The notes under the pieces: generated by a model
Told to the model about the DNA's origin: nothing
Database searches by the model: none
The model's input: the letters and a program-made list of their open reading frames with translations, nothing else
Assembly (NCBI GenBank): GCA_034433515.1
Contig: DAOUAL010000023.1
Location: 73-64,072, forward strand
Origin: Anaerolineae bacterium
GTDB lineage: Bacteria > Chloroflexota > Anaerolineae > UBA4142
DNA: 64,000 nt
Direction: 5' to 3'
Shown: piece after piece, positions 5,742-43,313 of the stretch
Position numbering within the stretch: the first letter of the stretch is position 1
Layout: every line of letters begins with the position of its first letter
Made by a program: the position numbers and the translations under genes

Positions 5742-6506
5742 TTAGTCGGCTTCGAGGTTATCTAAATCAATCAAACCCAGCGCGCGCGCTTCTTCGTACG
5801 TCAATTGATGGTTGGGATCGTTCAAAATATCCGGCGAGACTTTGGGTGGAGTTGGTTTCTCGGAGGTTGATTCCGAGGGTGGCGGCGTGACAGATGGCTT
5901 GTCGCGTCCCGGCAATTTGCGGCGTGGGCGGGGTGCTGGTGGTCTCTCTTCGGCTGGGGGTGCGGGGGGAGTGGCAGGTGCCGTTGGTGTAATCATAATA
6001 TTACTCTCAAACACGTTCATCGCTTCATCGAGGACATCGCTGACCGTACTTTTGATCTGCGCACTTTCTGCTGCACTGGGTTCCAGCAAAGATTTTTTGA
6101 TTAGCGCGCGCAATTCGGTTACCGCGCGGCGCAGGGTGAGCCACACCATTCCAATGCGGCTCGTTCCAACGAGTCCGCGTTCGAGGATGAGGGTCAAAAA
6201 GATTTGGTCATTCAGGCGCGTCGTGTACATCTCGTAATTTTGTCCTTCGTGAAAATGTAAATCGAAGGAGGCTTCATCGCGCAAGAGATGGACCACGGCG
6301 TTCGTGGCTGACATGGCATTGCCTAGGAGGGCGAGAAAGGCGTCAAGGTCCAAGTTGCGGATGTGTCCGCATTGCACCAACAATTCACCGGACTCGGCGG
6401 AGAGGATCGCGCCGGACGCACCGAGATCAATGCGCAGATTCTCGAGGCGTTCCTGAATTTTCTTTTGACCGGCTTCCGAAAAAGTGACTAGGGTATTCCC
6501 TTGCAT
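5742..6506 (-). CDS. Roadblock/LC7 (MglB-like) domain protein with Pro-rich C-terminal tail
   Basis: N-terminal ~130 aa fits the Roadblock pattern ('ASGAILSAESGELLV...DLDAFLALLGNAMSA'). C-terminus 'TPPAPPAEERPPAPRPRRK...' is low complexity. Confidence 0.4.
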   Translation of the reverse strand: MQGNTLVTFSEAGQKKIQERLENLRIDLGASGAILSAESGELLVQCGHIRNLDLDAFLALLGNAMSATNAVVHLLRDEASFDLHFHEGQNYEMYTTRLNDQIFLTLILERGLVGTSRIGMVWLTLRRAVTELRALIKKSLLEPSAAESAQIKSTVSDVLDEAMNVFESNIMITPTAPATPPAPPAEERPPAPRPRRKLPGRDKPSVTPPPSESTSEKPTPPKVSPDILNDPNHQLTYEEARALGLIDLDNLEAD

Positions 6507-6538
6507 AGTGCCTCATCTGATCGTTCAGCGTCGTCCGA

Positions 6539-6568
6539 AATATACCACGCTCTTGTGGGCATTGTCAA
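6539..6568 (-). promoter_or_regulatory. Putative sigma70 promoter for the 5742..6506 gene
   Basis: Minus strand reads TTGACA (6568-6563), an 18-nt spacer, then TATATT (6544-6539). Confidence 0.45.
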
Positions 6569-6574
6569 CAATAG

Positions 6575-6607
6575 GAACACCCGCCAACAGGTATACGGCG
6601 GGTGTTC
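6575..6607 (-). terminator. Hairpin downstream of tRNA-Asn
   Basis: 'gaacacccgcc' / 'ggcgggtgttc', an 11-bp stem. On the minus strand it is followed by 'ctattgtt'. Confidence 0.5.
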
Positions 6608-6609
6608 GC

Positions 6610-6685
6610 TGGCTCCTCGGCTAGGACTCGAACCTAGAACATCACGGTTAACAGCCGCGCGCTCTGCCAATTGAGCTACCGAGGA
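6610..6685 (-). tRNA. tRNA-Asn (anticodon GTT), CCA encoded
   Basis: Reverse complement reads tcctcggtagctcaattggcagagcgcgcggctGTTaaccgtgatgttctaggttcgagtcctagccgaggagcca. Acceptor stem tcctcgg/ccgagga, T arm ctagg-ttcgagt-cctag. Confidence 0.92.
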
Positions 6686-6733
6686 ATATTCACTTGTGTA
6701 TTTATTATATTCAAGATTGGCGGATGGTCAAGT

Positions 6734-8116
6734 TTAACCCAAATAATCCTTCAACTTTCGGCTCCGCAATGGATGCCGCAGTTTGCGCAATGCCTTCGCT
6801 TCGATTTGCCGGATGCGCTCCCGGGTTACACCAAACTCTTGCCCCACTTCTTCCAACGTGCGCGTCATTCCATCGGCCAGGCCAAAGCGTAATTCCAGTA
6901 CCTTACGTTCACGGTCGCTCAAGCCCTCCAGCACATCTTGCATTTGCTCTTTCAGCAATTGACGCGAGGCTTGATCGGCGGGACCGGGTATGGATTCGTC
7001 TTCGATGAAATCGCCCAGCGACGTGTTTTCTTCCTGACCAATCGGCGTCTCGAGCGACATGGGCTCTTGCGAGATCTTCATAATGCGGCGCACTTTAAGA
7101 GCGGCACGCTTGAGCCGCCGATCCAAGCCGGGATCAAGTGGTTCACCGCGGGCTTGCGCTTCGAGAATCGCGCGACGATCTTCGGGCGGCAAAATATCCA
7201 TTTCGAGCGCAATCTCTTCCGAGGTGGGTTCGCGCCCCAGTTCTTGGGTCAATCGGCGCGAGATGCGCACCAACCGATTGATCGTCTCGACCATATGCAC
7301 TGGGATGCGAATGGTACGGGCTTGATCGGCAAGGGCGCGTGTGATGGCTTGGCGAATCCACCACGTAGCGTAGGTAGAGAACTTGAATCCCTTGGAATAA
7401 TCAAAGCGTTCGACTGCGCGGAGCAAGCCAATATTGCCTTCTTGGATCAAATCCAAAAAAGACATCCCGCGTCCAATGTAGCGCTTGGCAACGCTGACGA
7501 CCAGACGTAGATTCGCTTCTGCCAGTTTGAGCCGCGCCGCCACCGCGGCATCCACCGCCGCTTTCCATTTTTGGCGAAGGCGCGCATTGGCATTCGCTTT
7601 GTGCAAATTGAGTTGTGCAATTTCACCTTTCTTCACTATCTCGGACAATTTGGATTCTTCTTCGCCGGTGAGCAAAGGCACCCGTCCAATTTCGCGCAGG
7701 TACATTCGCACCGGGTCGCTTCCAACTTCGGTGGGAACATCGTCCAGATCCAGGCGTTCTTCGATGCCCTCCGTCAAGTCTGGTTCCACCGCCGCCTCGG
7801 GCGCGGGGGTAATGTGATTGTCCACGATCTTGATTTTCATTTCGGCGAGCAAGCGGCGCAGATCGGCGATCTGTTCCGGATCATCTTCGATTTCCGGAAA
7901 GATGGTGCGAATCTGTTCCCAGTTCAATCGCTTGCTGGTGCCGGCTTTGCGGACGAGCGCATCGAGTACGGCATCTTGATCTGGCAAATCGGCGGCGCGC
8001 ACCCACGCGTCCTCCCCATGAACGCCAGCAAGTTTCAAGAGCCGGGATGTGTGCGGCTTGGAGGTTCGCGCTGTTTTCTTTTGAGTTTTGGTTGACGTTT
8101 TCTTTTTTTGAGGCAT
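6734..8116 (-). CDS. rpoD: RNA polymerase primary sigma factor (sigma-70)
   Basis: 'YLREIG', '[36 protein letters not shown]', '[28 protein letters not shown]'. Confidence 0.95.
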
Positions 8117-8121
8117 TGCTT

Positions 8122-9960
8122 TCAGATGCGCCCCAGAATAGTTCTGGTCCCCAAGGCTTTTTGATTTTCCATCAAGCGTTTGCGCAGAAAACCGATACGG
8201 GCAAACAATCCGCGTTCGGTTTCCGCACTGAGTTTTTCAAACTGGTCGCGCAAGATGACTTGAATCTGTGCCAATTCCGTTTTGTCGTGCTGAATCTGTA
8301 AACGATGTGCGGCATTTTCGATTTCGCGTGCTAGTTCCGGCTCACTCAAAGCCGGGAGTTCTTGACTGATTAAATGATCGTGCAAAGCGACGAGCGATTC
8401 GTCCAGCGTAACGCGAAAGGCTTCCCGATCGAATAATTCGCTCGGTGTCCAGTACTCGCGCAATGCCGTGAACAAGGCGCGGCACTCGGCGGGCGCAAAA
8501 TCTTCCGCGTCCAAAAATTCGATGCGTGCGAGATGCTCTGGCGTGTGAAGCACAAGGGTCAATAAATATTCTTCCAGTCTCGGCATGGCGCGTTGCGCCA
8601 GGGTTTCTGCCTCCGCCGGGCGAGGGACGATGCGCTGGTTCGCATCTACTTGTTGGGCAATCATTTGTTCCGGTGCTTGGACCAATCGCGCGAGTTGTTG
8701 CGTGTAATGGGTACGCTGAACCGGATTGCCAATTTCTCGGATAATGGGTACAAGTCGCTTGACCGCCAACGATTTATCGCGCGCGGTTTTTAGATCCAAG
8801 TCTTGCGTCAGCACGCGAAAATAGAAATCTACCAATGGTTCCGGATGCGCGGTGAGTTCGCTCCATTGTTGCGGGTCATCGTAGATCAACTCGTCTGGGT
8901 CTTTGCCGGGCGGCATCGGAATCACGAGTAATTCGGCTTCCAAGCGTTCTTCAAATCCAATCAAACCAGCGCCCAGCGGCACCGGCACGGTCTTGCGATC
9001 CAAGGCGTTGCGTGCTATTTCCAAACCGCGCTTGGTCGCTTCTTCGCCGGCGGCGTCGGGATCGAGTGCGAGCGCGTACCGATTGGTCAATCGTTTGAGC
9101 AAGCCCAATTGTTTTTCCGTGAGGGCGGTCCCCAGCGACGCGACGACGTTTTTGAATCCACCTTGATGTGCCCCAATCACATCCATATACCCTTCGACGA
9201 TGATGGCGAGATTTTGTTGACGAATCGCCTCTTTGGCAAGATCAAGGCCGTACAGCGTGCCGCTCTTATCAAATAGAGGGGTCTGCGGCGAGTTTAGATA
9301 CTTGGGTTCTTCGCCGGTCAAGGTGCGTGCGCCAAAGCCAATCACTTCGCCGTTGCGATTGCGAATAGGAAACATCAGACGTCCGCGAAAGCGGTCGTAG
9401 CGTCCACCGCCTTCGTGCGGCACGATCAAGCCGGCGGCTTCGATGTCGCGGACAGCGAATCCTTGGTTGACCAAGAAGGATTCCATTGCATGCCAATCGT
9501 CCAGCGCAAACCCCAGTTCAAACATTTCGACTGTCTCGGGCTTGAGATGTCGCTGGGCGACGTACTCGCGCGCGGCTTGGGCAGCCGGATGATTCTTGAG
9601 CAGGTTATGGTAATGGGCAGCGGCGGTGGCGAGTAGTTCACGCAAGCGCTTGCGTTCAACGTCTTCGCCGGGACCTTCGCGAATGAGTTCAACCCCGGCG
9701 CGTTGTGCCAAGCGGCGTAATGCTTCACCAAAATCAATATTCTCGCGTTTCATCAAAAATGTGAAAACATCGCCGCCGGTGCCGCATGCACCAAAGCAAT
9801 GCCAAGTCCCTTGATCGGGAAAGACGATGAACGAGGGAGTCTTTTCGTTGTGAAACGGGCAGAGCGCTTTGAAATTGCGCCCTGCTTTTTTCAAGGTAAC
9901 GTACGAGCCGATGACATCAACGATGTCAATCTTTGATTTGACGTCATCCACAACTGACAT
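8122..9960 (-). CDS. dnaG: DNA primase
   Basis: Zinc finger '[18 protein letters not shown]', TOPRIM 'IIVEGYMDV' and 'LDPDAAG'. Start moved to ATG 9960 ([17 protein letters not shown]); the track's 49-aa extension looks non-coding. Confidence 0.92.
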
Positions 9961-10155
9961 TTTAATCCTGCACACGAAAACTGCTGCCCAAGTTCTGCGA
10001 CAACCGTTGCATCCCGTCTGCGGCGGTATATTGCACCAAGTTACGCAGATTGTCAAGGCGGATGTGTTAGGTACAGCGGTTGTCGCGTCGAATCGGACGT
10101 AGGGCAAATTTCCAAACTTGACCTACGCTCTCTATCTGACAAAACACGTTGAGTT

Positions 10156-20615: not shown

Positions 20616-22007
20616 ATTCCCAAACTCACTACCTTTCCATCCCAACCTCCCATCGAGCGCGCGTTTCTCGTCGGCGTAGAATTAAAGCGTTCGCGCAACG
20701 AATTTCCAATCGAGGATTCGCTCGATGAACTTGAACGGCTTGCGGAAACGGCGGGGCTTGTCGTCGTTGGGCGCGCCGTGCAGCACATCGAACGCATCAA
20801 CCCGGCGACGTTCATCGGCAAAGGCAAACTCGCGGAGATCATCGCCGCGCGCGCCGAGACGCCGTACGATGTGCTGATCTTTGACGACGAACTCGCGCCG
20901 AATCAACAGCGTGAGATAGAACAAGCATTTGGCGGCGATGATATCAAAGTCTTGGATCGCACGGCGCTCATCCTCGATATTTTCGCGCAACACGCGCACA
21001 CACGCGAAGGCGCGCTCCAAGTTGAACTCGCGCAGTACGAGTATCGCCTGCCGCGTCTGACACGAATGTGGACGCACCTGGCGCGGCAAGCCGGCGGCGC
21101 GGCAGGGCGGGGCGGTACCGGCGGCGTCGGCTTGCGCGGTCCCGGCGAACGCCAATTGGAACTCGACCGCCGCGAGATTCGCAATCGTATTGCGCATCTC
21201 AAAAAACAAATCGAAGAGGTGCGGCAGCAGCGGCGCGAGCATCGGCGCAAGCGTCAACGCGAGGGATTGCCAGTCGTCGCGATTGTGGGGTACACCAACG
21301 CCGGCAAGTCCACGCTCCTCAACGCGCTCACCGATGCTGGCGTCCTTGTCGAAGACAAATTGTTTGCCACACTCGACCCCACGACGCGACGCGTGAAACT
21401 GCCGGGCGGCTCGGACGCGCTCTTCACCGATACCGTTGGCTTTATCCAGAAATTGCCAACGCAACTCGTCGCTGCGTTCCGCGCCACACTCGAAGAGATT
21501 ACCGAAGCGGATGTGCTGCTGCATGTTCTCGATGCGTCGCACCCGAATCTGCGCGAGCACGCGCGCGCGGTGGAAGAGACGCTGTGCGAGATTGGCGCAG
21601 GCGACAAGCCGATCGTGATGGCGTTGAACAAGATGGATAAAGTGACAGGCGGCGGGAGACAGGCGGCAAGTGGCGGTAGAGACGCATCGGTGATGCGGCT
21701 GGTTACACAAGACGGATTGACGCGTGTGGCGCCGGATGAATTTTTGCGCGAGGGGAATGCCGTACACATCTCCGCGCTGACAGGGCAGGGGTTGGACGAA
21801 TTGCTCGTGCTCATCGAGCGGACGCTGGCGGAGGAGATGGTTGCGGTGCGTGTGCAGATTCCGTATCGCGCGAACGAACTGGTGGCGCTCTTTCACCAGC
21901 GCGGCATCGTCGCGCGCGAAGAATTCACGGAACGCGGCACGCTCATCGAAGGCAGCATCGCGCGGAATTTGTTAACTCGTTTGGCGCGGTACAAAATTGA
22001 GGGTTGA
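20616..22007 (+). CDS. hflX: GTPase HflX (start codon uncertain, probably non-canonical ATT)
   Basis: G1 'GYTNAGKSTLLNAL', G3 'DTVGF', G4 'NKMD'. The conserved N-domain 'ERAFLVGVEL...FIGKGK' begins upstream of the first GTG (20778). There is no ATG/GTG/TTG between the stop at 20601 and 20778. 'aaggaga' lies 7 nt before ATT 20616. Confidence 0.8.
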   Translation: MPKLTTFPSQPPIERAFLVGVELKRSRNEFPIEDSLDELERLAETAGLVVVGRAVQHIERINPATFIGKGKLAEIIAARAETPYDVLIFDDELAPNQQREIEQAFGGDDIKVLDRTALILDIFAQHAHTREGALQVELAQYEYRLPRLTRMWTHLARQAGGAAGRGGTGGVGLRGPGERQLELDRREIRNRIAHLKKQIEEVRQQRREHRRKRQREGLPVVAIVGYTNAGKSTLLNALTDAGVLVEDKLFATLDPTTRRVKLPGGSDALFTDTVGFIQKLPTQLVAAFRATLEEITEADVLLHVLDASHPNLREHARAVEETLCEIGAGDKPIVMALNKMDKVTGGGRQAASGGRDASVMRLVTQDGLTRVAPDEFLREGNAVHISALTGQGLDELLVLIERTLAEEMVAVRVQIPYRANELVALFHQRGIVAREEFTERGTLIEGSIARNLLTRLARYKIEG

Positions 22008-24007: not shown

Positions 24008-25027
24008 ATGTCCACCAGTCATTCAGTTCCGATCTCCGACGCCATCCGCGAGTATCTTGATCAACTAGCGGTGGGCAAGCAACCACTCACGGTGCAAGCG
24101 TACCACGTCGCCTTGCGACGCTTTGCCACCTTTTTGACCGAACATCAAAAAATCTCGCCTGAACGTCCGGTCGGCAAATTGACCATTGACCACGCCATCG
24201 AATTTGGCAAATCGTTACAAGGCTTGGCACCCGCCACCATCAAAAACTATCTCGCGGCACTCTCGCAATTCTATCGTTTCTTGTTTGCCAAGCGTTGGGT
24301 GGTCATTGATACCGCCGATCACGAGCGTTTGTTTGCGACGCTGAAACAAATGCGACCGCGCGCCTCAAGTCTGCCACGCGTGCCCACCGATGAAATGATA
24401 GATGCTCTGATCCAAGCCGCCAGCGAGCCGAGAGGAACTTTAAAACGCAAGCCATCCCCGGGTGACCGGGAACGCGCTGAATTACAACGATTACGGAATG
24501 TCGCTTTGCTGCTCGCCTTGCGTTCATCCGGGATGCGTTTGGGCGAAGTGCTGGCGCTTCAACGGGGAGATTTGGATTATCGCAACAAATCGGCGCTGGT
24601 TACCGGCAAAGGACGCAAACAGCGAATGGTGTATTTCGATGAACGCGCCTGGAATGCCATCCAGGAGTATTTGCACGCGCGCCAAGATGGTAAACTCGTC
24701 CGGGCTATGTCGCACTTGCCGGTGTTCGCTCGCCACGATCGCCGTGCCGGCAACAAGATTCTACCCTTGACGCGCCAAGGAGTTGAACAGGTCTTTGCCA
24801 AACTCGCTGAACGCGCCCAAGTGGATCCCAAACCAACGCCGCATTGGTTTCGCCATTGGTTTGCGACGCAAATTCTGGATCGCACGCAAGATTTGGCGGC
24901 GTTGCAAGATATGCTGGGGCACGAATCGCCAGTAACGACGCGCATCTATGCCAAGGTTTCAACCCGCCGATTGCGCCAAGTCCATAATTATGCCTTTGGC
25001 GATAAGAAGACGCAAGATGAAAAATAA
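24008..25027 (+). CDS. Tyrosine site-specific recombinase (XerC/D / phage-integrase family)
   Basis: N-terminal SAM-like domain. Catalytic set: 'SSGMRLGEVLAL' (R), 'HWFRHWFAT' (HxxR), 'LGHESPVTTRIYAKV' (H, Y). Confidence 0.88.
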   Translation: MSTSHSVPISDAIREYLDQLAVGKQPLTVQAYHVALRRFATFLTEHQKISPERPVGKLTIDHAIEFGKSLQGLAPATIKNYLAALSQFYRFLFAKRWVVIDTADHERLFATLKQMRPRASSLPRVPTDEMIDALIQAASEPRGTLKRKPSPGDRERAELQRLRNVALLLALRSSGMRLGEVLALQRGDLDYRNKSALVTGKGRKQRMVYFDERAWNAIQEYLHARQDGKLVRAMSHLPVFARHDRRAGNKILPLTRQGVEQVFAKLAERAQVDPKPTPHWFRHWFATQILDRTQDLAALQDMLGHESPVTTRIYAKVSTRRLRQVHNYAFGDKKTQDEK

Positions 25028-29660: not shown

Positions 29661-29685
29661 GTAGAGACGTTGCAATGTGTGTCCT

Positions 29686-30150
29686 ATGGCTGACAGCGAA
29701 AAAATTCTCGCCACTAATCGCAAAGCATATCATGATTACCATATCGAGGAAACGTACGAAGCCGGCATTGCCTTGACCGGTACCGAAATCAAATCGGTGC
29801 GGGCAGGCAGTATCAATCTGCGCGATAGTTATGCCCAAGTGAAACATGGCGAGTTGTGGTTGCTGAATGCTCACATTGCGCCCTACGAACCCGCCAGTCG
29901 TCAAAACGTTGATCCGTACCGTGATCGCAAATTGTTGATGCATCGGCGTGAAATCATGCGCTTGTTTGGTCGCGTGCAAGAAAAGGGATTGACCCTCGTG
30001 CCACTCAAGGTCTATCTCAAAAAAAACCGCGCCAAAGTGGAAATTGGTTTGGCGCGCGGCAAGAAACTGTATGACAAACGTGAAGCGATTAGCAAACGCG
30101 ATGCGGCGCGTGAGATTGCGCGCGCCGTCAAGGAACACCGCCGTTCGTGA
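29686..30150 (+). CDS. smpB: SsrA-binding protein
   Basis: 'NRKAYHDYHIEETYEAGIALTGTEIKSVR', 'RDRKLLMHRREI'. The start could instead be GTG 29677. Confidence 0.92.
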   Translation: MADSEKILATNRKAYHDYHIEETYEAGIALTGTEIKSVRAGSINLRDSYAQVKHGELWLLNAHIAPYEPASRQNVDPYRDRKLLMHRREIMRLFGRVQEKGLTLVPLKVYLKKNRAKVEIGLARGKKLYDKREAISKRDAAREIARAVKEHRRS

Positions 30151-33258: not shown

Positions 33259-34986
33259 ATGAAATTCGACAAACGTTTACTGGCCCAACTGAACAACGCC
33301 CGCATCTTTTTTGTGTTCACGATTCTGTGCGGATTCGTGATGGGCATTCTGACCATCGCGCAGGCGTACACGTTGAGCCAGATCATCGCCCAAGTTTTTT
33401 TGCGACATTCCACGCTCGATAGGGTGTGGAACGCCATGCTCATCTTGCTGGGCATTATCATCGTACGCGTGATTTTGGCATGGGCAAGCGAGGTGAGCGC
33501 GTCTCAAATCGCCGCGCGCATCAAGACTGATTTGCGCGAACGTCTGGTTCAACGATTGTTCACGCTGGGTCCTGCCTACGCGCGCGGTGAACGCACCGGC
33601 GAATTGGTGAACACGCTGACCGAAGGCATCGAAGCGCTGGATGCGTATTTCAGTCAGTACCTGCCTCAACTTGTTCTTGCCGCGCTCCTTCCGCTTGCGA
33701 TCCTGCTCTTTGTCTTTCCACTCGATTGGTTGTCCGGCATCGTCTTGTTGTTCACGGGACCACTCATTCCAATTTTTATGATGCTCATTGGGAGTGCGGC
33801 AGACGCACTCACGCGCAAACAGTACTCGCAACTCAGTTTGATGAGCGCGCATTTCCTCGATGTATTGCAAGGATTGACGACGCTAAAGATCTTTGGACGC
33901 AGTCGCGAACAGATTGAGACGATTGCGCGCGTGAGCTATCAATTCCGCGATACAACATTGAGCGTTTTGCGTGTGGCGTTCCTGTCCGCCTTTGCGCTCG
34001 AAATGATTGCAACGATCAGCACGGCTATCGTGGCTGTCCAAGTGGGGTTGCGTTTGCTCTATGGTCAACTCGATTTTGAGCGTGCATTTTTTGTTTTGGT
34101 GCTTGCGCCGGATTTTTACTTGCCGTTGCGATTGCTCGGGACGCGATTTCACGCGGGAATGGCTGGCGTTGCTGCGGCGGCTCGGATTTTTGAAATCCTT
34201 GAAACAAATGACGGACGACGGAAGACGAGTGAGATGCCGTCGTCCTTGGTTGTTTGTCTTCCGTCCATTACCTTCAAAAATGTTCACTATTCCTACGATG
34301 GTACTCGCCCCGCGCTCAACGGTGTTTCTTTCACGATCGAACCCGGTCAGCGCATCGCGTTGGTGGGACACACGGGGGCTGGCAAAAGTACCATTATCCA
34401 CCTCTTGATGCGTTTTATCGAACCAACACGCGGCGAAATTTTTTGCGGCGACCTTTCATCGCGCGAGGTATCCCCAGAAGCATGGCGCACACAAATCGCG
34501 TGGGTGCCCCAGTTGCCGTACTTGTTCAACAATTCGATTGCAAACAACATTCGTCTGGCGCGCCCCGATGCGTCAATGGACGAAGTTGTGCGTGCTGCTC
34601 AACTTGCGCACGCCGATGATTTTATCCGCGCGTTACCACAGGCGTATGAAACGATCATCGGTGAGCGTGGCGCGCGGTTGAGTGGTGGACAAGCCCAACG
34701 CCTCGCCCTAGCACGTGCCTTCTTGAAAGACGCCCCGATTTTGGTTCTTGACGAGCCAACGTCGAATCTCGATGTTGAGACCGAAGAGTTGATTCAAGAC
34801 TCGCTGGAACGTTTGATGCCAGGCAAGACAACCCTGATCGTCTCGCATCGTTTGAATACCGCAATGCAAGCAGACCAGATGCTTGTTCTTGAGCAAGGTC
34901 GCATCGCCGAAGTGGGTACGCATCACGAGTTAATGCAGCAACGCGGCGTGTATCATCGTCTCGTGATGGCACGGGAGGCGCTGTGA
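33259..34986 (+). CDS. cydD: Thiol reductant ABC exporter subunit CydD
   Basis: TMD plus NBD: 'GHTGAGKST', 'LSGGQAQRLALARA', 'ILVLDEPT'. Position after cydAB. Confidence 0.8.
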   Translation: MKFDKRLLAQLNNARIFFVFTILCGFVMGILTIAQAYTLSQIIAQVFLRHSTLDRVWNAMLILLGIIIVRVILAWASEVSASQIAARIKTDLRERLVQRLFTLGPAYARGERTGELVNTLTEGIEALDAYFSQYLPQLVLAALLPLAILLFVFPLDWLSGIVLLFTGPLIPIFMMLIGSAADALTRKQYSQLSLMSAHFLDVLQGLTTLKIFGRSREQIETIARVSYQFRDTTLSVLRVAFLSAFALEMIATISTAIVAVQVGLRLLYGQLDFERAFFVLVLAPDFYLPLRLLGTRFHAGMAGVAAAARIFEILETNDGRRKTSEMPSSLVVCLPSITFKNVHYSYDGTRPALNGVSFTIEPGQRIALVGHTGAGKSTIIHLLMRFIEPTRGEIFCGDLSSREVSPEAWRTQIAWVPQLPYLFNNSIANNIRLARPDASMDEVVRAAQLAHADDFIRALPQAYETIIGERGARLSGGQAQRLALARAFLKDAPILVLDEPTSNLDVETEELIQDSLERLMPGKTTLIVSHRLNTAMQADQMLVLEQGRIAEVGTHHELMQQRGVYHRLVMAREAL

Positions 34987-34987
34987 G

Positions 34988-36757
34988 ATGAAAGCCTCAC
35001 GTTCTACGTTCTTCGCTTTACTTCGCCTTGCTGTGCCGTTCCAATGGCTCATCGCGCTGGCGGTCTTGCTGGGCGCATTCACGATCGGTAGTAGCATTGG
35101 TTTGATGGCAACGTCTGCATACATTATTGCGAGCGCGGCGTTGCATCCCTCCATCGCTGACCTTGCCGTGCCAATTGTGGGTGTGCGATTCTTTGGTATC
35201 GCGCGCGGGGTGTTTCGCTATCTCGAACGGCTCATCTCGCACTATATCAACTTTAGTTTGCTTGCCCGTCTGCGCGTTTGGTTTTACTCAACCATCGAAC
35301 CGCTTGCGCCAGCGCGTCTAAGGCAATATCGCAGCGGCGATTTATTGACGCGCATCATCAGTGACATCGAGACGCTCCAAAATTTCTACGTTCGCATCAT
35401 CGCGCCGCCGCTGATTGCTGTGGTGATTGCCATTGCTACCTCTGTCTTTCTTGCAAGTTTTTCCTCCATAATTGCATTGACCGTGCTAGGTTTTATGTTT
35501 CTCGTTGGTGTTGTCGTACCGATTCTTGTGCAACAAATCAGCGAGACGCCCAATCGCCAAATGATCGAACGGCGCGCCGAACTCAATGCGAATGTGGTGG
35601 ATAGCGTACAGGGCATTGCAGATTTGATCGCTTATGGTGGCGAACGCGCACAGTTTGAACGTATGGCTGATCTAAATCATCGTTTGATTCGCGTACAAAC
35701 GCTTTTGGCATCTATCACCGGCTTGCACAATGCGCTGGGAAATTTGTTGACTCATCTGGCAATGTGGTGTGTGCTGGTGATCGCAATTCCGCTGGTGAAT
35801 GTGGCGCGGTTCGATGGGGTATATTTGCCGGTGATTGCGTTAGCCGTGCTGGCAAGTTTTGAAGGAGTGCTTGCCCTGCCCTTGGCGTTTCAATATCTGG
35901 AAAGTAATTTGCAGGCGGCGCGGCGGTTGTTTGAGATTACAGACCACCGACCTCAGATAACAGACCACCGATCACCAAAAACTTTGGGTGCTCATCCATC
36001 AGCAATCAAGTTTGAAAATGTTTCTTTCCGTTATTCGCCCCGCGAACCGCTCGTGCTTGAGAATGTGAGTTTTGAATTGCAAACCGGCAAACGCATGGCG
36101 ATTGTAGGAGAAAGCGGTGCGGGCAAAACGACCATCGTCAATTTGCTCTTGCGCTTCTGGGATTGCACAAGTGGACACATCATCGTGGATGGACGCGAGT
36201 TGGCTGAATACACACCGGACGATGCACGAAAACTTTTCGCTGTCGTGGCGCAACCCACGCATTTGTTTAATGCGACGATTCGGGAAAATCTTTTGTTGGC
36301 GCGTCCGCAAGCCACCGAAGCCGAAATGAGGGAGGCGGCAAAGCAAGCGCAAATTCACGATTTCATTCTGTCTTTGCCGGATGGCTATAACACGCGGATT
36401 GGTGAACAAGGTTTGCGCTTGAGCGGTGGTGAACGTCAGCGTTTAGCCATTGCGCGTGCGTGGCTAAAGGATGCACCGATTCTGATTTTCGACGAGCCGA
36501 CGGCGAATCTTGATACCGTTACTGAACGTGAGGTTTTGCGCGCCATTCATCATTCCACTTTGAATCGCACGGTATTGCTGATTACGCATCGCCTTGTGGG
36601 GTTGGAGGATTTCGACGAAATCATCGTGTTGCAGGCGGGGCGCATTGTGGAACGCGGGACACCGAAGGGTCTATTGCAAGAAGAGGGATTGTATCGTAGA
36701 ATGTGGACACTTCAGAATCGAATGTTGGTTGAGAATTTACATCATGTTGTCCATTAG
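34988..36757 (+). CDS. cydC: Thiol reductant ABC exporter subunit CydC
   Basis: 'GESGAGKTT', 'LSGGERQRLAIARA', 'ILIFDEPT'. Confidence 0.8.
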   Translation: MKASRSTFFALLRLAVPFQWLIALAVLLGAFTIGSSIGLMATSAYIIASAALHPSIADLAVPIVGVRFFGIARGVFRYLERLISHYINFSLLARLRVWFYSTIEPLAPARLRQYRSGDLLTRIISDIETLQNFYVRIIAPPLIAVVIAIATSVFLASFSSIIALTVLGFMFLVGVVVPILVQQISETPNRQMIERRAELNANVVDSVQGIADLIAYGGERAQFERMADLNHRLIRVQTLLASITGLHNALGNLLTHLAMWCVLVIAIPLVNVARFDGVYLPVIALAVLASFEGVLALPLAFQYLESNLQAARRLFEITDHRPQITDHRSPKTLGAHPSAIKFENVSFRYSPREPLVLENVSFELQTGKRMAIVGESGAGKTTIVNLLLRFWDCTSGHIIVDGRELAEYTPDDARKLFAVVAQPTHLFNATIRENLLLARPQATEAEMREAAKQAQIHDFILSLPDGYNTRIGEQGLRLSGGERQRLAIARAWLKDAPILIFDEPTANLDTVTEREVLRAIHHSTLNRTVLLITHRLVGLEDFDEIIVLQAGRIVERGTPKGLLQEEGLYRRMWTLQNRMLVENLHHVVH

Positions 36758-37151: not shown

Positions 37152-37210
37152 TTCAGTGCTGACCTTCGCCGGTTCGACACCTGTGAACTGCACCCGGCGC
37201 GAACGCACAA

Positions 37211-37238
37211 TTGACGCGTAACTCGTTCGTGATATAAT
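37211..37238 (+). promoter_or_regulatory. Putative ssrA promoter
   Basis: TTGACG, 16-nt spacer, TATAAT, ending 12 nt before the mature 5' end. Confidence 0.55.
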
Positions 37239-37250
37239 ACAGGTGCAATT

Positions 37251-37653
37251 GGGGATGCATGGCTTCGACGGGGAGGGCTGTTTCAGAGTTGCAAGCCGTG
37301 GAGTCTAGCCACGTTAAAATGGACACAAGTAAGTGCGAACACTCGCACCAACCTTGCAGCGCTGCCGGTCGCAGCGTAAGCTGTTGAGCGGATCGCTGAC
37401 AGGTTCGCAGACTAGATCTGCGACGTCCGCGCGCGTTCTCCCCCAAAGGATGCGCGTTGGGCGCCACCAAGTTGGGGTGCGACAATCGCCACGCCGGTAA
37501 CGGTTGTCAAAGACGTAGGGGGGGCCCCCGACACGGCTGAGCGTGATCACCTCTGTCGGTTGAGCCGGATCACGCGAGATTCAAAAACCGACTAGGCTTG
37601 TAGGAACTCTGGAACGAACTTTTCGGACGCGGGTTCGATTCCCGCCATCTCCA
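37251..37653 (+). ncRNA. ssrA: tmRNA (SsrA), tag ANTRTNLAALPVAA
   Basis: 5' 'ggggatgcatggcttcgacgggg' and 3' 'ggacgcgggttcgattcccgccatctcca' form the tRNA-like domain. Tag reading frame gcg(37335)...gca gcg taa(37377-79). The CCA is not encoded. Confidence 0.93.
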
Positions 37654-37656
37654 CTC

Positions 37657-37692
37657 AATCGCCTGCCAATAACTCGGCAGGCGATTCGTTTT
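37657..37692 (+). terminator. Intrinsic terminator after ssrA
   Basis: 'aatcgcctgcc-aataactc-ggcaggcgatt' followed by 'cgtttt'. Confidence 0.75.
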
Positions 37693-37770
37693 ATGCGGGG
37701 TAATCGTCTATGTCTGGTTCTATTGGCAGTTTGATCTTATGTTACTCGCATACATCCGCGCAGTTATTCT

Positions 37771-37799
37771 TTGCCGGAAACCCGGTCTGTGGGTAGAAT
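37771..37799 (+). promoter_or_regulatory. Putative promoter of the sensor-TIR operon
   Basis: TTGCCG, 17-nt spacer, TAGAAT, about 50 nt upstream of ATG 37849. Confidence 0.45.
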
Positions 37800-37848: not shown

Positions 37849-40086
37849 ATGTCACGCAAACCGCCTTATCCGTCCGAAACCCAATCCACCTTAGGGGCAT
37901 TTTTTGCCCGCTTGATCCGTCAAAAGCCGGCGGTGGTCCAACCGGTGCCCACCGATCGGCAAAGGATCAACTTGTTGCTCGTTTGCGAAGACCCAGCGTT
38001 TTGCGAGGCACTGCAACGAGCATGGTTTGATCGCGAGGACCAGCGGTATCAAGTTGCGGTGGCAAACAGTCCCCGTGAAGCGCGCGAAAAAGTGTCGGCG
38101 CAATTCTTTGATGTCCTGTTGATTGATCAGAAATTAAAAGGCGAGGGAGGGGATGGCACGCACCTCACCACCGAGTTGCTCAAGATCAGCCCGGATAGTG
38201 CGGCTATTTTGCTGACCGAATTTTCTAGCCCGGAGGATGGTTTGCGCGCCGTGCAAGCCGGCGCTGATGATTATCTCATCAAGACTGCGGATTGGCAGAC
38301 AACGTTCCGTGAACTTGCGTTGCGGGTTGCCGTCTTGTTCGAGAACAAAGAAGCGCGGCGGCGGCGCGTGCAAGAATTGGAAAGTTTGGTCGAGATTCAA
38401 AGTGCGATCATTGGTATCGAATCGGAAGCGGATCTGCCCAAGGTTTTGGATTCCGTCGTGCAATTTGCGATGCAGTATCTCTCGCACGTGGATGCCATCA
38501 CGATCTTTTACATCAATCCCGAAACCGGCGAGCCGCAATTTGGTGGCGCTGCCGGCATCCTCGATCTCGAACAACTCAAAAACCACCCTCCCAAATTGAA
38601 ACGAGTGTTGTCGTTGACCGAACCGTACTATGCGTTCAACGCAGCCGAAGACCTGGTTGTGCACGGTGAGTTTATTACGCGAGAAAAGATCGTCTCGGTA
38701 GCCGTCTTTCCACTGATTAATCGTGGCGAACGCTTTGGGTTGATGTTCTTTAATTATCGGCATCCGCAAGCGTTCGATGAAAGCGAAAAGAGCGAGTTGA
38801 GTTTATTTGCTCAACAAGCCGCGTTGGCGATTCACAAAGTGGTCATCTTCGATGAAACTAAACGTCGCCAACAACGCTTTGAAACCATTGCGCGGATTAT
38901 GCCGATTGTGGGGGCGTCACTCGATCCGGAACAAGTGGTGCGGGCTGTGTCGCGCGAGCTTCTCAAAGTCGTTCCACGTGCCCGCGAAGTTTGTATGCTC
39001 TACTATGAACAGGACACGGGCGACCTCGTTTTCTCGTTGGCAAGTTTTGAGTTTTATCACATTGATGTTGTGGGGCAATTGGGTAGAACGCGCCTCAAAG
39101 CCAACGAGCCCAGTACGCCGATGAGCGTGGTGCGATCGGGCAGGGGACTCTACGTGCCCGATGTGAGCAGGCAGCCGGAATATCAACCCTTGGTCAGTTC
39201 CACCCAGTCACAAATGTGTATGCCGATCCAAGTTGGCGGTGAAATCCTGGGTGTGTTGGTGTTAGAAAGTAATCAATTAGACGCCTTTACCTTGGATGAT
39301 CAATTTCTCTTGCAAGCCCTCGCCGATCAAGTTGCTGTTGCTCTCAAAAAAGCGCAGGAACATACCCGGTGGCTCAAAGCCCAAGACGATTTGGCGGCAA
39401 ACGATGCGATCGCCTGGATGGGCTTGTTCGGTTCGAATTGGTCGCACACCGTCAATCAACGCACCTTCGAAATTGAAGGGAAGGTTTTTTTGCTCCGGCA
39501 AGCCCTGGCAGGTGTGGCTTCCCCCGAAATCGAAAGGTGGCTTGCCGATATTGAGGACGCGAGTCGGCAACTCAAAGCCCTTCAAATTGCCGGCAAAGTC
39601 TCGCACGAGCCCCGCCCCGGCGACTCGACCGTTTCGATGGATCGCGTCTTAACCGAACGCGTGCCACGCTGGTGCGAAAAGTTTCCAGAGATAACCTTAA
39701 CGATGGACCTTCAATGCCCGGGTGTCCACGTTCCCATTGAAGAAGGTTGGCTAGAAATTCCCTTGGAGAAACTCATCAACAACGCCCTCAAGGCGATGGG
39801 AGGAAGAGGTGCGCTGAGTGTACGCAGCGCGCGGTACGGCAATCGGATCGAGGTCCAAATTCAAGACACTGGCAAAGGAATTCCAGAAGAAGCCAAAAAG
39901 TATTTGTTCAAACGGCCGGTTCCCAAACCTACCTCCAAAGAAGGCAGTGGCTTGGGATTACTCATTGCACGCAAAGTGTTGACGGCACACGGTGGTGATT
40001 TGGTGCTACTCCGGACCGCCCCAGGCGAAGGCACCACCTTTATGTTTCACCTGCCCGTTGCACACGTAGATGACCAAGGAGCATAA
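37849..40086 (+). CDS. Hybrid sensor: N-terminal receiver (REC), two GAF-like domains, atypical dimerization region, HATPase_c
   Basis: REC: 'LLLVCED', 'FDVLLIDQKL' (D93), 'ILLTEF', 'DYLIK'. GAF-like blocks around aa 175-330 and 345-505 ('GERFGLMFFNY', 'GEILGVLVLES'). ATPase: N box 'LINNALKA', G1 'DTGKGI', G2 'GSGLGLLIA'. Confidence 0.8.
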   Translation: MSRKPPYPSETQSTLGAFFARLIRQKPAVVQPVPTDRQRINLLLVCEDPAFCEALQRAWFDREDQRYQVAVANSPREAREKVSAQFFDVLLIDQKLKGEGGDGTHLTTELLKISPDSAAILLTEFSSPEDGLRAVQAGADDYLIKTADWQTTFRELALRVAVLFENKEARRRRVQELESLVEIQSAIIGIESEADLPKVLDSVVQFAMQYLSHVDAITIFYINPETGEPQFGGAAGILDLEQLKNHPPKLKRVLSLTEPYYAFNAAEDLVVHGEFITREKIVSVAVFPLINRGERFGLMFFNYRHPQAFDESEKSELSLFAQQAALAIHKVVIFDETKRRQQRFETIARIMPIVGASLDPEQVVRAVSRELLKVVPRAREVCMLYYEQDTGDLVFSLASFEFYHIDVVGQLGRTRLKANEPSTPMSVVRSGRGLYVPDVSRQPEYQPLVSSTQSQMCMPIQVGGEILGVLVLESNQLDAFTLDDQFLLQALADQVAVALKKAQEHTRWLKAQDDLAANDAIAWMGLFGSNWSHTVNQRTFEIEGKVFLLRQALAGVASPEIERWLADIEDASRQLKALQIAGKVSHEPRPGDSTVSMDRVLTERVPRWCEKFPEITLTMDLQCPGVHVPIEEGWLEIPLEKLINNALKAMGGRGALSVRSARYGNRIEVQIQDTGKGIPEEAKKYLFKRPVPKPTSKEGSGLGLLIARKVLTAHGGDLVLLRTAPGEGTTFMFHLPVAHVDDQGA

Positions 40087-40089: not shown

Positions 40090-42294
40090 ATGACAGCCAT
40101 TCGTTCCACTCGTCGTATTTTGGTGGTTGACAATGATGCCGGCGTTCGCAAGACAATCAAAGAAGTTCTCCAAGTTAGCAAGTATCAAGTGTATGTTGCT
40201 GAAGGTAGCGGAGAGGCGCTCATCAAGAATGCACGTCAACTGTTGGTGGATTCGCGCTGTCATTTAGCCATCCTCGATCTGCGTCTGATCAATGATAATG
40301 ACCCCGAGGACTGGAGTGGATTCGCGTTGGCTTCCGACATTAGCAAACAATATCCATGGGTGAGTTGCATGTTTCTCACTGGCTATGGCAGTTTCGATCT
40401 GGCGCGGCGCGCACTCGCCCAGAATATTGCCGTGGATGTCGCACGTAAAGACAGTAGTTTTAACGAGATTTTCAGAACGGTGGATCAAGCCTTTAGTAAG
40501 ATTCGTTGCCGCTGGGATCAAGAACTGGAACCTTCCAATCCGGAATGGGACGAACTGCTTGCACCACTCAAAGAACAGATTCCCAGTCCGGAGATTGCGC
40601 AATCTGAATTCGCCGAAGTGCTAGGGCGTTTGTTTCCGGATGCCGATAAATTGCATCTGCGCAAATTGAGTGATTACGAAAGCGCGCCCTCCGTAACTTC
40701 GGGGCATTCGATTTTGTTGCGTGTGGCAGCACATCAGAATGGTCGTTGGTTGGAAGATGTGGCGGTCAAGATTGGTAGCCACGATGCCATTCAACGCGAA
40801 ATCGTCAATTATGATCATTTTGTCCACAACCAAATCGGCGATTATCGCTACACCTTTCGCCAATCCAGCGCATCTACATGGTATTTAGGTGGGATTGTTT
40901 ACGCGCTCATCGGTGCAGAAATTGATAACACGCTGACCTTGCAAGAATATTATCGCAACACTGGCGACTCGGATCATAGATCACTGGATACTGTGCTGAA
41001 TACACTTTTCAGCCGCCTATTCCGCCGCTGGTACGCCGAACCCAAAACTGTTCACATCAACATCTCATCCGAATACACGACTGCACTAGGTTTGAATGAC
41101 ACACGTTTGGCGCGGCTCAAAAATTGGGGCGATGATCCGGAAATTCAATTTGCTGGGATCAGCACTCCCCTGCCCAATCCGTTGGTCTGGATTCAACACC
41201 ATGGTCGCAACAGCGATATTGAAACCAGTCAACATATTGTTCATGGTGACCTTCACAGTCGCAATGTGTTTGTGGGCCCCAATCAAGATGTTTGGTTGAT
41301 TGATTTTGAACGCACAGGTCCCGGGCATTGTTTGCGCGATTATATCGAATTAGAGACCGACATTAAATTTAGTTTGATGTCTGCAGCAATCGAACAACCC
41401 AAACTCTTTTACGCGTTTGAAACTGCTCTGCTAGGACAAACGCGGGATGGACTCAAAAAAGCCGGCGCCTTGTTGCCGCCTGCTCTAGTACGTAATCATC
41501 CTGAAGCGCATCGTGCCTTCACCGTGATTACTCATCTGCGCCAACTTGCTACGGATCGGATCCGGTATCCCGATTTGCGGGATTACTTTTGGGGATTATT
41601 GTTTCAAACGGTGTTTGTTGCCACGCTGAGCAACGTGTCCGATGCCACCCGTGAACAAGTCAAGTTATCTGCCGCCCTCATCTGCCAGCGTCTGGGTGAT
41701 GGAATTCATTTGCGCGAACCCTGGCCTCCCAAAAGCAAAATGGCTCTGATCAAGAGTAAATTGACGAAAAAGAAAACCGTACCTGAATCACGGCGCGTTC
41801 TCTCTCCCAAACGCAAAAGCAATCTGGCTCTGGCACTGCAAACAACACCCTTGGATATCTTTTGCTCGTATTCCCATCGCGACGAGAAAATGCGCCAAGA
41901 GTTAGAGAAACATTTGGCGTTGCTTGAACGACAGGGGATCGGCGTCATTTGGCACGATCGCAAGATTGATGCGGGCGAACCTTGGCGAGGACACATTGAT
42001 GCTCATCTCAAGTCGGCGGATATTATTCTGTTGCTGATCAGCCCTGATTTTCTTGCGTCGGATTATTGCTATGATATCGAAATGAAGAAGGCTTTGGAGC
42101 GCCACGATGCCGGCGAGGTGCGGGTGATACCTATCATTCTCCGTCCCTGCGATTGGCAAAAAGCACCTTTTAGTAAACTGCAAGCCCTGCCCCAAGATGG
42201 CAAGCCGGTTACCCGCTATCGTTCTCGGGACGAAGCTTATTCAAACATTGTGGAGGGAATGTGGCGAGTCATAGAAAAAATGCGTGCCAAGTAA
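40090..42294 (+). CDS. REC / protein-kinase-like (APH/ePK fold) / TIR domain protein
   Basis: REC: 'LVVDNDAG', 'LAILDLRL' (D63), 'FLTGYG'. Kinase-like: 'VAVKIG', 'HGDLHSRNVFV', 'WLIDFERTG'. TIR from aa 589: 'DIFCSYSHRDE', 'IILLLISPDFLASDYCYDIEMKKAL' (putative catalytic E664, codon 42079-81), 'VIPIILRPC'. Confidence 0.8.
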   Translation: MTAIRSTRRILVVDNDAGVRKTIKEVLQVSKYQVYVAEGSGEALIKNARQLLVDSRCHLAILDLRLINDNDPEDWSGFALASDISKQYPWVSCMFLTGYGSFDLARRALAQNIAVDVARKDSSFNEIFRTVDQAFSKIRCRWDQELEPSNPEWDELLAPLKEQIPSPEIAQSEFAEVLGRLFPDADKLHLRKLSDYESAPSVTSGHSILLRVAAHQNGRWLEDVAVKIGSHDAIQREIVNYDHFVHNQIGDYRYTFRQSSASTWYLGGIVYALIGAEIDNTLTLQEYYRNTGDSDHRSLDTVLNTLFSRLFRRWYAEPKTVHINISSEYTTALGLNDTRLARLKNWGDDPEIQFAGISTPLPNPLVWIQHHGRNSDIETSQHIVHGDLHSRNVFVGPNQDVWLIDFERTGPGHCLRDYIELETDIKFSLMSAAIEQPKLFYAFETALLGQTRDGLKKAGALLPPALVRNHPEAHRAFTVITHLRQLATDRIRYPDLRDYFWGLLFQTVFVATLSNVSDATREQVKLSAALICQRLGDGIHLREPWPPKSKMALIKSKLTKKKTVPESRRVLSPKRKSNLALALQTTPLDIFCSYSHRDEKMRQELEKHLALLERQGIGVIWHDRKIDAGEPWRGHIDAHLKSADIILLLISPDFLASDYCYDIEMKKALERHDAGEVRVIPIILRPCDWQKAPFSKLQALPQDGKPVTRYRSRDEAYSNIVEGMWRVIEKMRAK

Positions 42295-42303
42295 CCTATT
42301 CCA

Positions 42304-42337
42304 CCGGCAGAGCCCGCACTCTGCCGGTTTTGCTTTT
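42304..42337 (+). terminator. Intrinsic terminator ending the sensor-TIR operon
   Basis: 'ccggcagag-cccgca-ctctgccgg' followed by 'ttttgctttt'. Confidence 0.75.
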
Positions 42338-42389
42338 CAATGAGAATGATTCTATAATAGAGCCAATATTACTGGCAAGGAGAGCAGGC

Positions 42390-43313
42390 ATGGCAATTCA
42401 ATCTGAACGTGCAACCATTGGGGTTATTGGTGGAAGCGGTGTTTATCAAATGGAGGGATTGACCGACGTCAAAGAAATCAAAGTCAAAACTCCGTTTGGT
42501 GATCCGAGTGACGTGATCGTTCTAGGTACCTTAGGTAACCAACGAGTTGCGTTTCTGCCACGCCACGGTCGCGGTCATCGCATTATGCCGTCCGAACTTC
42601 CCGTTCGCGCGAACATCTATGCCTTGAAATCACTAGGGGTCGAACGAATTATCTCGATTAGCGCGTGTGGTAGTCTGCGCGAAGACTTTGCCCCCCTCGA
42701 TATTGTGATTCCCGATCAACTGTACGATCGAACCAAGAGCCGTCCCCCCACATTTTTTGGCGAAGGGCTCGTGGTGCATATTTCGTTTGCGGATCCGTTT
42801 TGTCCCGAGTTGAGCCAGGTTCTTTACAATGCTGCGATGCACGCCGGAGCGCGTGTGCACAAAGGCGGACGCTTGGTTGTCATTGAGGGACCGCAATTTT
42901 CTACCAAAGCAGAATCAGAAACGTATCGCGCTCTAAAGATGGACATTATTGGAATGACGGCGCTCCCGGAAGCCAAACTAGCGCGTGAGGCAGAAATCTG
43001 TTATGCCACGATTGCTATGGTAACCGACTATGATGTGTGGCATCCGGCGCATGATTCGGTTACTGTGGAAATGGTTGTTCAAAACCTGTTGCGAAATGCC
43101 GAGATGGGCAAACGCATTGTTCGATATGCGGTGGATGAGGTGCCAACAACGCGTGAACATTGTCCCTGCCCCAATGCGCTCAAGGATGCCATCATTACGG
43201 CACGTGATCGAATCCCGGCAAACACCCGGAGAAAACTGGGGATTCTGCTCGATAAGTATTTGCCTTCGGAAGAGACTGCTACCCAATCGCGTAGAATAAA
43301 ATTGAAAAGATAA
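42390..43313 (+). CDS. mtnP: S-methyl-5'-thioadenosine phosphorylase
   Basis: 'IGVIGGSG', 'VAFLPRHGRGH', 'IIGMTALPEAKLAREAE'. ATG 42390 follows 'aaggagag'. Confidence 0.88.
   Translation: MAIQSERATIGVIGGSGVYQMEGLTDVKEIKVKTPFGDPSDVIVLGTLGNQRVAFLPRHGRGHRIMPSELPVRANIYALKSLGVERIISISACGSLREDFAPLDIVIPDQLYDRTKSRPPTFFGEGLVVHISFADPFCPELSQVLYNAAMHAGARVHKGGRLVVIEGPQFSTKAESETYRALKMDIIGMTALPEAKLAREAEICYATIAMVTDYDVWHPAHDSVTVEMVVQNLLRNAEMGKRIVRYAVDEVPTTREHCPCPNALKDAIITARDRIPANTRRKLGILLDKYLPSEETATQSRRIKLKR

Follow-up and report, generated by a model that had tools for sequence, protein, structure and literature searches.

A receiver–TCAD9 kinase–TIR response regulator coupled to a hybrid histidine kinase in an Anaerolineae genome: a candidate phosphorylation-gated TIR NADase

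A stretch of 64,000 nucleotides from an Anaerolineae bacterium (Chloroflexota; assembly GCA_034433515.1, contig DAOUAL010000023.1), hereafter the window, carries a pair of genes for a hybrid sensor histidine kinase and a response regulator in which a receiver (REC), an APH-like kinase of the TCAD9 family and a TIR domain are joined in one polypeptide. The regulator gene is an open reading frame (ORF) for 734 aa at 40090..42294 (positions are those of the window, on the plus strand unless stated otherwise), and the kinase gene at 37849..40086 encodes 745 aa with the Pfam-based order REC-GAF-GAF-DHp-HATPase_c. Only 3 nt separate the kinase stop codon from the regulator ATG, and an AAGGAG ribosome-binding site lies within the 3' end of the kinase gene; the regulator is translationally coupled to the upstream kinase in a two-gene operon. 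Upstream, the pair is bounded by the terminator (37657-37686) of the transfer-messenger RNA (tmRNA) gene ssrA (37251-37656; Rfam RF00023, 149 bits). Between this terminator and the kinase start sits a candidate sigma-70-like promoter, TTGCCG-17-TAGAAT (37771..37799), proposed from its consensus match only (9/12). The operon ends in an intrinsic-terminator-like hairpin and T-run (42303..42328; 10-bp stem, 7 GC pairs), which begins 9 nt past the regulator stop codon and has the tail TTTTGCTTTTC.

Pfam assigns Response_reg to regulator residues 10-131 (E 1.4e-8), TIR_2 to residues 590-699 (E 9.5e-18) and, between them, TCAD9 ('ternary complex associated domain 9', PF19974; E 3.3e-34, 119.2 bits against a gathering cut-off of 40), with a weak APH match at residues 368-418. 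This agrees with the tripartite receiver/kinase-like/TIR organization that an initial annotation, made from the sequence alone, had proposed. Compared with a 98%-identical strain (locus L005; related loci bear L numbers and related proteins P numbers), the regulator gene has 89 synonymous differences and 13 non-synonymous ones, a ratio of non-synonymous to synonymous rates (dN/dS) of 0.04; the receiver has 17 and the TIR domain 5 synonymous differences, and neither has a non-synonymous one. The AlphaFold2 (AF2) model built from 120 aligned sequences has a mean predicted local distance difference test score (pLDDT) of 91.3 and a predicted template modelling score (pTM) of 0.75. Given this dN/dS and this pLDDT, the ORF is a real gene under purifying selection rather than a chance frame. 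The model contains one disordered stretch (aa 554-583, 41749..41838; pLDDT below 50), which links the kinase flexibly to the TIR and is only 23% identical to that of a 67%-identical orthologue, whereas identity across the domains is 63-70%.

In the receiver (aa 10-131, 40117..40482), alignment to solved receivers places D63 as the acceptor Asp at the end of beta-3, inside LAILDLRL (codon 40276-78) as had been claimed, and this residue is kept in 64 of 65 relatives. T97 of beta-4, within FLTGYG (40372-89), is T or S in 63 of the 65, and the conserved receiver Lys, K120 of beta-5, which the initial annotation did not mention, is kept in 63/65. The same annotation had assigned the acidic pocket to D14 and D16 of VVDND (40123-37). 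This assignment needs correction: D14-N15-D16 pairs with DDD/DDE/EDD of solved receivers, so that the canonical pair is D14/N15 and the Mg2+-ligating residue is Asn. A family-specific acidic insertion, LRLINDNDPEDWSG (aa 63-77, 40276-40320), occupies the beta-3/alpha-3 loop, with D or E at position 69 in 57/65 and D at position 74 in 60/65 relatives, and R65 occupies position D+2 relative to D63. N15, R65 and the insertion together may define an altered metal or phosphatase site. Foldseek aligns the domain with the BeF3-activated ArcA receiver at a template modelling (TM) score of 0.87, and phosphorylation of the receiver remains likely despite the family-specific change at the metal site. The proposal that catalytic residues are intact in all three modules therefore stands for the kinase, the TIR domain and D63, T97 and K120 of the receiver, but not for the receiver Mg site, where N15 is found.

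The TCAD9/APH-like kinase domain spans aa ~150-553 (40537..41748), as delimited by Pfam, Foldseek and conservation. K227 of beta-3 (in VAVKIG, 40759-76), H385, D387 and N392 are invariant in 65/65 relatives, and E237 of alpha-C and D405 are kept in 64/65; over 150 representatives of 50%-identity clusters, the catalytic residues are at least 90% conserved. The motifs HGDLHSRN and IDFE are present as reported, each one nucleotide further on than had been given (41242-65 instead of 41241-64, and 41299-310 instead of 41298-309). A family acidic motif, LRDxxELExD, follows the DFE, and its D417 is invariant. The best structural neighbours are APH(3')-Ia, Rv3168 and methylthioribose (MTR) kinase (TM about 0.5-0.58), and a sequence profile of the domain matched no solved relative beyond the catalytic loop. 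With the aminoglycoside 3'-phosphotransferase/choline kinase group, the domain shares the bilobal kinase fold (TM about 0.55), HGDLxxxN followed by D-F-E, the beta-3 Lys and the alpha-C Glu; it differs in its low identity (12-15%) and in a much larger, helical C-lobe with LRDxxELExD. As the nucleotide-binding and catalytic residues are conserved in 64-65 of 65 relatives, the domain is apparently a catalytically competent APH-like kinase rather than a degenerate pseudokinase.

The TIR domain (aa 584-734, 41839..42291) has the predicted active-site residues S593, H596, D623, S657 and E664. Its motif DIFCSYSHRDE starts at 41854 and the codon of E664 is 42079-81, both exactly as first annotated. 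The domain modelled alone reaches pLDDT 94.5. In Foldseek searches with this model, Cat1 is the best structural neighbour, followed by plant and adaptor TIRs, and the best target-normalized fit is to AbTir with 3AD bound (TM 0.79, root-mean-square deviation 2.5); the probability is 1.00 for Cat1, AbTir and SARM1, and SPARTA matches too. In profile and pairwise alignments, E664 falls on Cat1 E74, on the Glu of AbTir 'NYELD' and on the canonical Glu of Toll-like receptors (TLRs) and a plant TIR. One extra residue stands between the conserved aromatic residue and the Glu (Y-C-Y-D-I-E compared with W-x-x-x-E), and the distance from the Glu to the proline of the beta-D 'IPI' is 17 residues in the regulator, AbTir and Cat1 alike. 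In the AF2 model, E664 is inside helix alpha-C (658-673). The concern that this Glu might lie outside the active site is thus answered by its coincidence with the canonical TIR Glu and its invariance in 38 homologues, and E664 is predicted to be the catalytic Glu from the profile alignment and its position in the modelled alpha-C.

The TIR subfamily is tightly conserved, with more than 2000 matches at ~60% identity across phyla. S593, H596, D598, S657, Y659, C660 and E664 are invariant in the 38 aligned representatives, and D623 is at least 90% conserved within the subfamily. Besides the Glu pair, alignment pairs S593 with Cat1 S7, D623 with D33 and S657 with S68. According to the Cat1 paper, S7, H8, N9, N10, D33, S68 and E74 line the active site; N10A, D33A, S68A and E74A are among the substitutions that abolish function, S7 not having been substituted; and two TIRs are needed to build the NADase active site. 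The regulator thus resembles the sensor-fused TIR NADases Cat1 (CARF-TIR), TIR-SAVED, SARM1 and AbTir in its TIR fold and active-site residues, and activation through induced TIR–TIR assembly would be expected here as well. It differs from them in the extra residue before the Glu of its TIR subfamily and in its input, which in those proteins is a cyclic nucleotide or the NMN/NAD ratio and here is predicted to be Asp phosphorylation by a histidine kinase.

The partner kinase would supply this input. Pfam places Response_reg at residues 44-148, HATPase_c at 639-738, and GAF_2 and GAF in two stretches each, the best of them at 358-499; the tandem GAF sensor region covers aa ~166-505 (38344..39363; GAF_2 7.5e-28, two stretches). 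Its own receiver (aa 44-148, 37978..38292; Pfam) has the canonical acidic pair E47/D48 and the acceptor D93, and might be where a second kinase feeds in. The H-box His of NWSHTVNQ, H533 (codon 39445..39447), is by conservation the predicted autophosphorylation site and is kept in 18 of 19 aligned partner kinases, among which the N, G1 (DTGKGI) and G2 (GSGLGL) boxes, intact in this protein, are also conserved. The kinase gene has a dN/dS of 0.05 relative to L005. With a coupled kinase that has an intact H-box, the dependence of the effector on Asp phosphorylation, as initially suggested, is plausible.

The chassis of the regulator recurs widely. An HMMER search with the kinase domain over 1.84 billion cluster representatives yielded 1795 clusters at E <= 1e-3, including 159 at E <= 1e-30. 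Of the 150 best clusters, 124 have an N-terminal receiver, and the C-terminal tail is 80 aa or longer in 56 and shorter in the other 94. Extra domains assigned by Pfam in the 56 extended proteins are TIR_2 (12), Peptidase_C14 (caspase; 9), CHAT (4), EAD7/EAD1 (3), metallophosphatase (2), SIR2_2 (1), PNP_UDP_1 (1; P0007) and guanylate cyclase (1). More than one TIR subfamily is represented among the fused TIRs, which indicates that fusion happened repeatedly. The TIR is encoded by a separate gene of the same operon in L007 and L025, and the TIR of L044 forms part of a TCAD9 protein that carries Clp_N where the receiver would be. The kinase is no mere spacer, since about 60% of the family lacks any other effector. 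The REC-TCAD9 family is uncharacterized and Chloroflexota-centred, and full-text literature searches found no paper describing a kinase-linked REC-TCAD9-effector system. The intercalated kinase had been called unusual, with the caveat that the architecture might prove common and already characterized. It does recur, with TIR on 12 of the 56 C- or N-terminally extended proteins, and nothing in the literature was found to characterize it; what is not unusual is the combination of receiver and TCAD9, a sizeable family of which the kinase is the constant output.

Coupling to a histidine kinase is equally constant. In 49 genome loci, nearly all from Chloroflexota, a (REC-)GAF histidine kinase gene precedes every REC-TCAD9 gene that has enough upstream DNA, on the same strand and usually at a distance of -25 to +28 nt, and the distant REC-TCAD9-TIR proteins P0209 and P0246 also keep upstream kinases. 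The window, L001 and L005 have the minimal two-gene form. Three- and four-gene versions of the operon are headed by a kinase of about 740 aa with the order S1-REC-GAF-HATPase_c; such S1-REC-(GAF) histidine kinase genes lie further upstream in about thirteen loci (L002 4455-6665; L003 2291-4717; L007, L008, L009, L012-L015, L019, L023 and L024). Their N-terminal S1 domain is of an RNA-binding type; a domain that binds nucleic acid is unusual on a sensor kinase and could be a sensor of the trigger. The receiver of the L002 S1 kinase reads VDDE by eye. In many relatives, TCAD9 is followed by one or two genes for proteins of about 450 aa with a P-loop NTPase (nSTAND1/AAA_22) and a Trans_reg_C winged helix (P-loop/winged helix-turn-helix, wHTH, genes; L003 12928-14295; L012, L014, L015, L019, L023, L024, L025 and others); these often occur as two paralogues, and adjoin receiver-less TCAD9 genes in L027, L029, L030, L033, L034 and L045. 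Neither S1-kinase nor P-loop/wHTH gene remnants were found in the window by tblastn.

Some related loci show further features. L016 (1-11572), on a 14.3-Mb Caldilineaceae contig, contains two kinase + REC-TCAD9 cassettes in tandem within 12 kb, and L033 has two TCAD9 genes, which indicates paralogous expansion in large Chloroflexota genomes. A gene of the Inositol_P family (inositol monophosphatase/CysQ) follows the TCAD9-TIR cassette in two different operon forms (L003 14332-15129; L054 5519-6319; L055 2324-3124).

With moderate confidence, we propose that the regulator forms the output half of a two-gene phosphorelay for immunity or programmed death and acts as a TIR NADase gated by phosphorylation. 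This proposal draws directly on the architecture, the residue conservation, the operon coupling, the purifying selection and the effector swapping described above. The displacement of effectors on a constant chassis is a signature by which conflict systems are recognized (PMC7159879); this signature and the obligatory kinase partner give a phosphorylation-gated effector the best support among the explanations, and since the swapped C-termini are cell-killing enzymes, the regulator most likely acts as an immune or cell-death switch triggered by a signal. In this scheme, the hybrid kinase would sense a cue via its GAF domains or its own receiver, autophosphorylate on H533 and transfer the phosphoryl group to D63 of the regulator. 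Phosphorylation of D63 would alter the conformation or oligomeric state of a rigid REC-kinase body, so that TIRs carried on the roughly 30-residue disordered linkers could pair head-to-tail and form a composite active site. Cleavage of NAD+, by depletion or by conversion to ADP-ribose (ADPR)-type products, would then stop growth or kill the cell, and would serve abortive infection or the programmed death of single cells in a filament. The TCAD9 kinase might act as a second, parallel output, or as an ATP-dependent licensing or assembly hub for the fused effector.

The logic of such a switch comes closest to that of Detocs, the defensive two-component system DtcA/DtcB/DtcC (Rousset et al., bioRxiv 10.1101/2023.01.24.525353). 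There, a histidine kinase acts with a REC-PNP regulator in defence against phage, which requires the receiver Asp. In both systems, a histidine kinase is paired with a regulator whose DNA-binding output gave way to a cell-arresting enzyme, and the effector is swappable; the relative P0007 carries a PNP domain at that position. To our knowledge, Detocs is the only two-component system shown to act directly as an immune effector. The differences are considerable: the sensor is a TPR domain in Detocs and REC plus GAF domains in the partner kinase here; the stand-alone buffer receiver DtcB has no counterpart in this operon, where there is no room between the genes; a roughly 400-aa APH-like kinase is intercalated between receiver and effector; the effector is an ATP nucleosidase there and a TIR domain here; and relatives of the present operon add an S1-domain kinase and a P-loop/wHTH gene. 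No Dtc model matched at E <= 0.1 in PADLOC, whose library was not confirmed to hold Detocs models. With another sensor, no buffer receiver, no sequence match and the intercalated kinase, membership of Detocs was ruled out. In L003/L004, the genes for the GAF kinase and the TCAD9-CHAT-TIR protein have between them a small receiver-like ORF (9429-9989; E 2e-10) that recalls DtcB and was seen only in that locus pair.

Two other systems invite comparison with the operon. In PADLOC, the TIR domain matches the ThsB1 model PDLC00420 strongly (1.5e-60), a model that covers generic TIR, and ThsB is the TIR protein of Thoeris; however, the TIR here is fused to a receiver and a kinase and has Cat1, AbTir and SARM1 as structural neighbours. 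There is no ThsA match among the 50 window proteins, the adjacent genes encoding the histidine kinase and an MTAP-like phosphorylase, and Thoeris was ruled out for want of ThsA. TCAD9 itself has been catalogued computationally as an effector domain of MoxR-vWA ternary conflict systems, its kinase being described as APH-like and likely a small-molecule kinase, and receivers in such systems as occurring independently of histidine kinases (Kaur et al. 2020, 2021). The present family shares with them the TCAD9 domain, the company of TIR, caspase, CHAT and EAD domains and the occurrence in multicellular bacteria, but here TCAD9 is joined to a histidine-kinase-linked receiver and not to vWA/MoxR. 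A MoxR AAA+ protein, a vWA protein and a third component (VMAP or iSTAND) are not adjacent, the terminator-bounded operon consisting of two genes.

Several observations weigh against a phosphorylation-gated immune NADase. The locus lies outside any defence island, among the housekeeping neighbours rpoD, dnaG, hflX, cydABCD, MTAP and iPGM; the order ssrA-kinase-regulator-MTAP-PHO4-MR_MLE-iPGM is kept in an Anaerolineae genome; and no TCAD9 homologue was found in plasmid or phage collections. Asn replaces the second acidic residue of the receiver (N15) in 59/65 family members and six acidic-insertion residues, NDNDPE, follow D63, for which reasons metal binding and phosphotransfer chemistry may be atypical. 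No characterized TCAD9 member was found in structure matches or literature, and about 60% of the family lacks a fused effector, so that the kinase is perhaps the main output. This last point leads to a different explanation, in which the kinase is the real output of an ordinary physiological signalling module of filamentous Chloroflexota, controlling for example stress or development by phosphorylating a protein or metabolite and, in relatives, perhaps feeding the P-loop/wHTH regulator, the TIR being an accessory interaction or regulatory domain and no killing enzyme. Proteins without an extra domain predominate (a tail under 80 aa in 94 of the 150 best clusters), the kinase residues are the most conserved of the regulator, a P-loop NTPase with Trans_reg_C is a conserved fourth gene in many relatives, and the syntenic, housekeeping chromosomal context would suit such a role. 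Yet the great majority of the fused domains serve in cell death or immunity (TIR, caspase, CHAT, SIR2, PNP and EAD), the invariance of the TIR active-site residues in the subfamily would be unexpected for a scaffold, and this TIR is under strong purifying selection (5 synonymous and 0 non-synonymous changes). We regard this explanation as unlikely, though it is the strongest of the rivals.

Two further alternatives keep the TIR as an output and change what it does or when. The TIR might be a signal generator like ThsB, making a cyclic-ADPR-type or ADPR-derived messenger for a receptor encoded elsewhere, with the kinase possibly modifying the messenger. That the strongest PADLOC match is the ThsB-labelled model, and that an APH-like small-molecule kinase stands beside a nucleotide-producing TIR, is suggestive of this; but neither a ThsA-like protein (SIR2/SLOG/Macro) nor any other reader was found among the 50 window proteins, the 50 best Foldseek matches of the TIR contain no ThsB structure and are headed by the NAD+-degrading Cat1, with SARM1 and AbTir matching too, and other proteins with the REC-TCAD9 chassis have caspases or CHAT proteases, for which a nucleotide messenger is not required. 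The probability of a messenger function therefore seems low to us. The logic could also be inverted, the kinase keeping D63 phosphorylated and the TIR off until loss of the signal by infection, ATP collapse or kinase inhibition frees the effector. The sequence does not fix the sign of regulation, which counts against our own proposal too, the non-canonical metal site (N15 and R65) could tune the lifetime of the phospho-Asp, and the receiver of the kinase could serve as a phosphate sink. Receiver phosphorylation generally promotes oligomerization, however, and in Detocs, the one tested analogue, the effector is activated by phosphotransfer and defence fails when the receiver Asp is mutated. Of the explanations considered, this guard-like one appears to us the least probable. 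Activation of the TIR NADase by phosphorylation remains the reading that we prefer.

On one side, the operon is flanked by ssrA, Rrf2 and cydDC, and on the other by MTAP, PHO4, MR_MLE and iPGM; cydABCD, the MTAP-like phosphorylase, PHO4 and iPGM were named by eye or by Pfam on an orthologous locus. The rest of the window, which includes the Rrf2 regulator and DUF2207, is of housekeeping type. The ssrA gene has a strong promoter (37211-38; 11/12 with a TG extension), the minus-strand ORFs over it (37153-37550) are spurious, and a probable smpB was recognized by eye at 29677-30150. In the syntenic Anaerolineae relative, the kinase is 69% and the regulator 67% identical, and the neighbours are 83-87% identical. 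A recent island at ssrA was ruled out, as the GC content shows no anomaly, the 3' end of the tmRNA gene has no directly repeated copy and synteny is kept. In L005, an extra 571-aa gene (5905-7620, minus strand) lies between ssrA and the kinase and is not in the window (~37690-37720), which means that the ssrA 3' flank varies between close strains; by eye, its product has cNMP-binding, GAF and PP2C/SpoIIE-type phosphatase domains. A tyrosine recombinase gene 13 kb upstream (24008-25027; Phage_integrase and a SAM-like N-terminal domain, apparently XerC/D-like) showed no link to the kinase-regulator pair.

Downstream, the listed 350-aa ORF with a GTG start (42261-43313) starts inside the end of the TIR gene and continues across the terminator; this start is an artefact. 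The real gene is probably of about 307 aa from the ATG at 42390 and MTA phosphorylase-like; it matches PNP_UDP_1 (2.9e-45) and is 83% identical to a 304-aa L001 orthologue. This gene was considered as a part of the system because P0007 fuses a PNP domain, and was ruled out, being unrelated to the PNP of P0007 and separated by the terminator. PADLOC matches elsewhere in the window to RT_UG29, RTasDnaG-like, LeoA/LeoBC, mad2/3/8 and MzaA (8122-10107, minus strand; 20778-22007; 33259-36757; 1e-6 to 1e-58) were dismissed as generic-domain false leads: Pfam finds DnaG primase and HflX GTPase at two of these positions, and the CydDC ABC transporter presumably accounts for others.

More tentatively than for the single gene, we suggest that the window holds the minimal form of an undescribed, Chloroflexota-centred phosphorelay family for immunity or cell death. 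Its full form would consist of an S1-domain kinase, a REC-GAF kinase and a REC-TCAD9-effector protein, with or without a P-loop/wHTH protein. The APH-like kinase would be a phosphorylation-gated hub that licenses interchangeable TIR, caspase, CHAT, SIR2 and PNP executioners, and the S1 domain hints that RNA might be the ultimate trigger; in an exotic version, the kinase would chemically modify NAD+-derived TIR products. If the proposed gating is true, the operon would represent a second, unrelated phosphorelay lineage besides Detocs, implying the repeated recruitment of phosphorelays as cell-suicide triggers, here with an intercalated kinase and with TIR, caspase and SIR2 as outputs. It would also open TCAD9, whose protein-kinase-like members form about 1800 sequence clusters, to functional study for the first time, and provide a TIR NADase that phospho-Asp or BeF3-, a defined covalent signal, could switch on and that would be useful for studying the mechanism of TIR activation. 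The lineage occurs in filamentous bacteria, for which altruistic death is most plausible.

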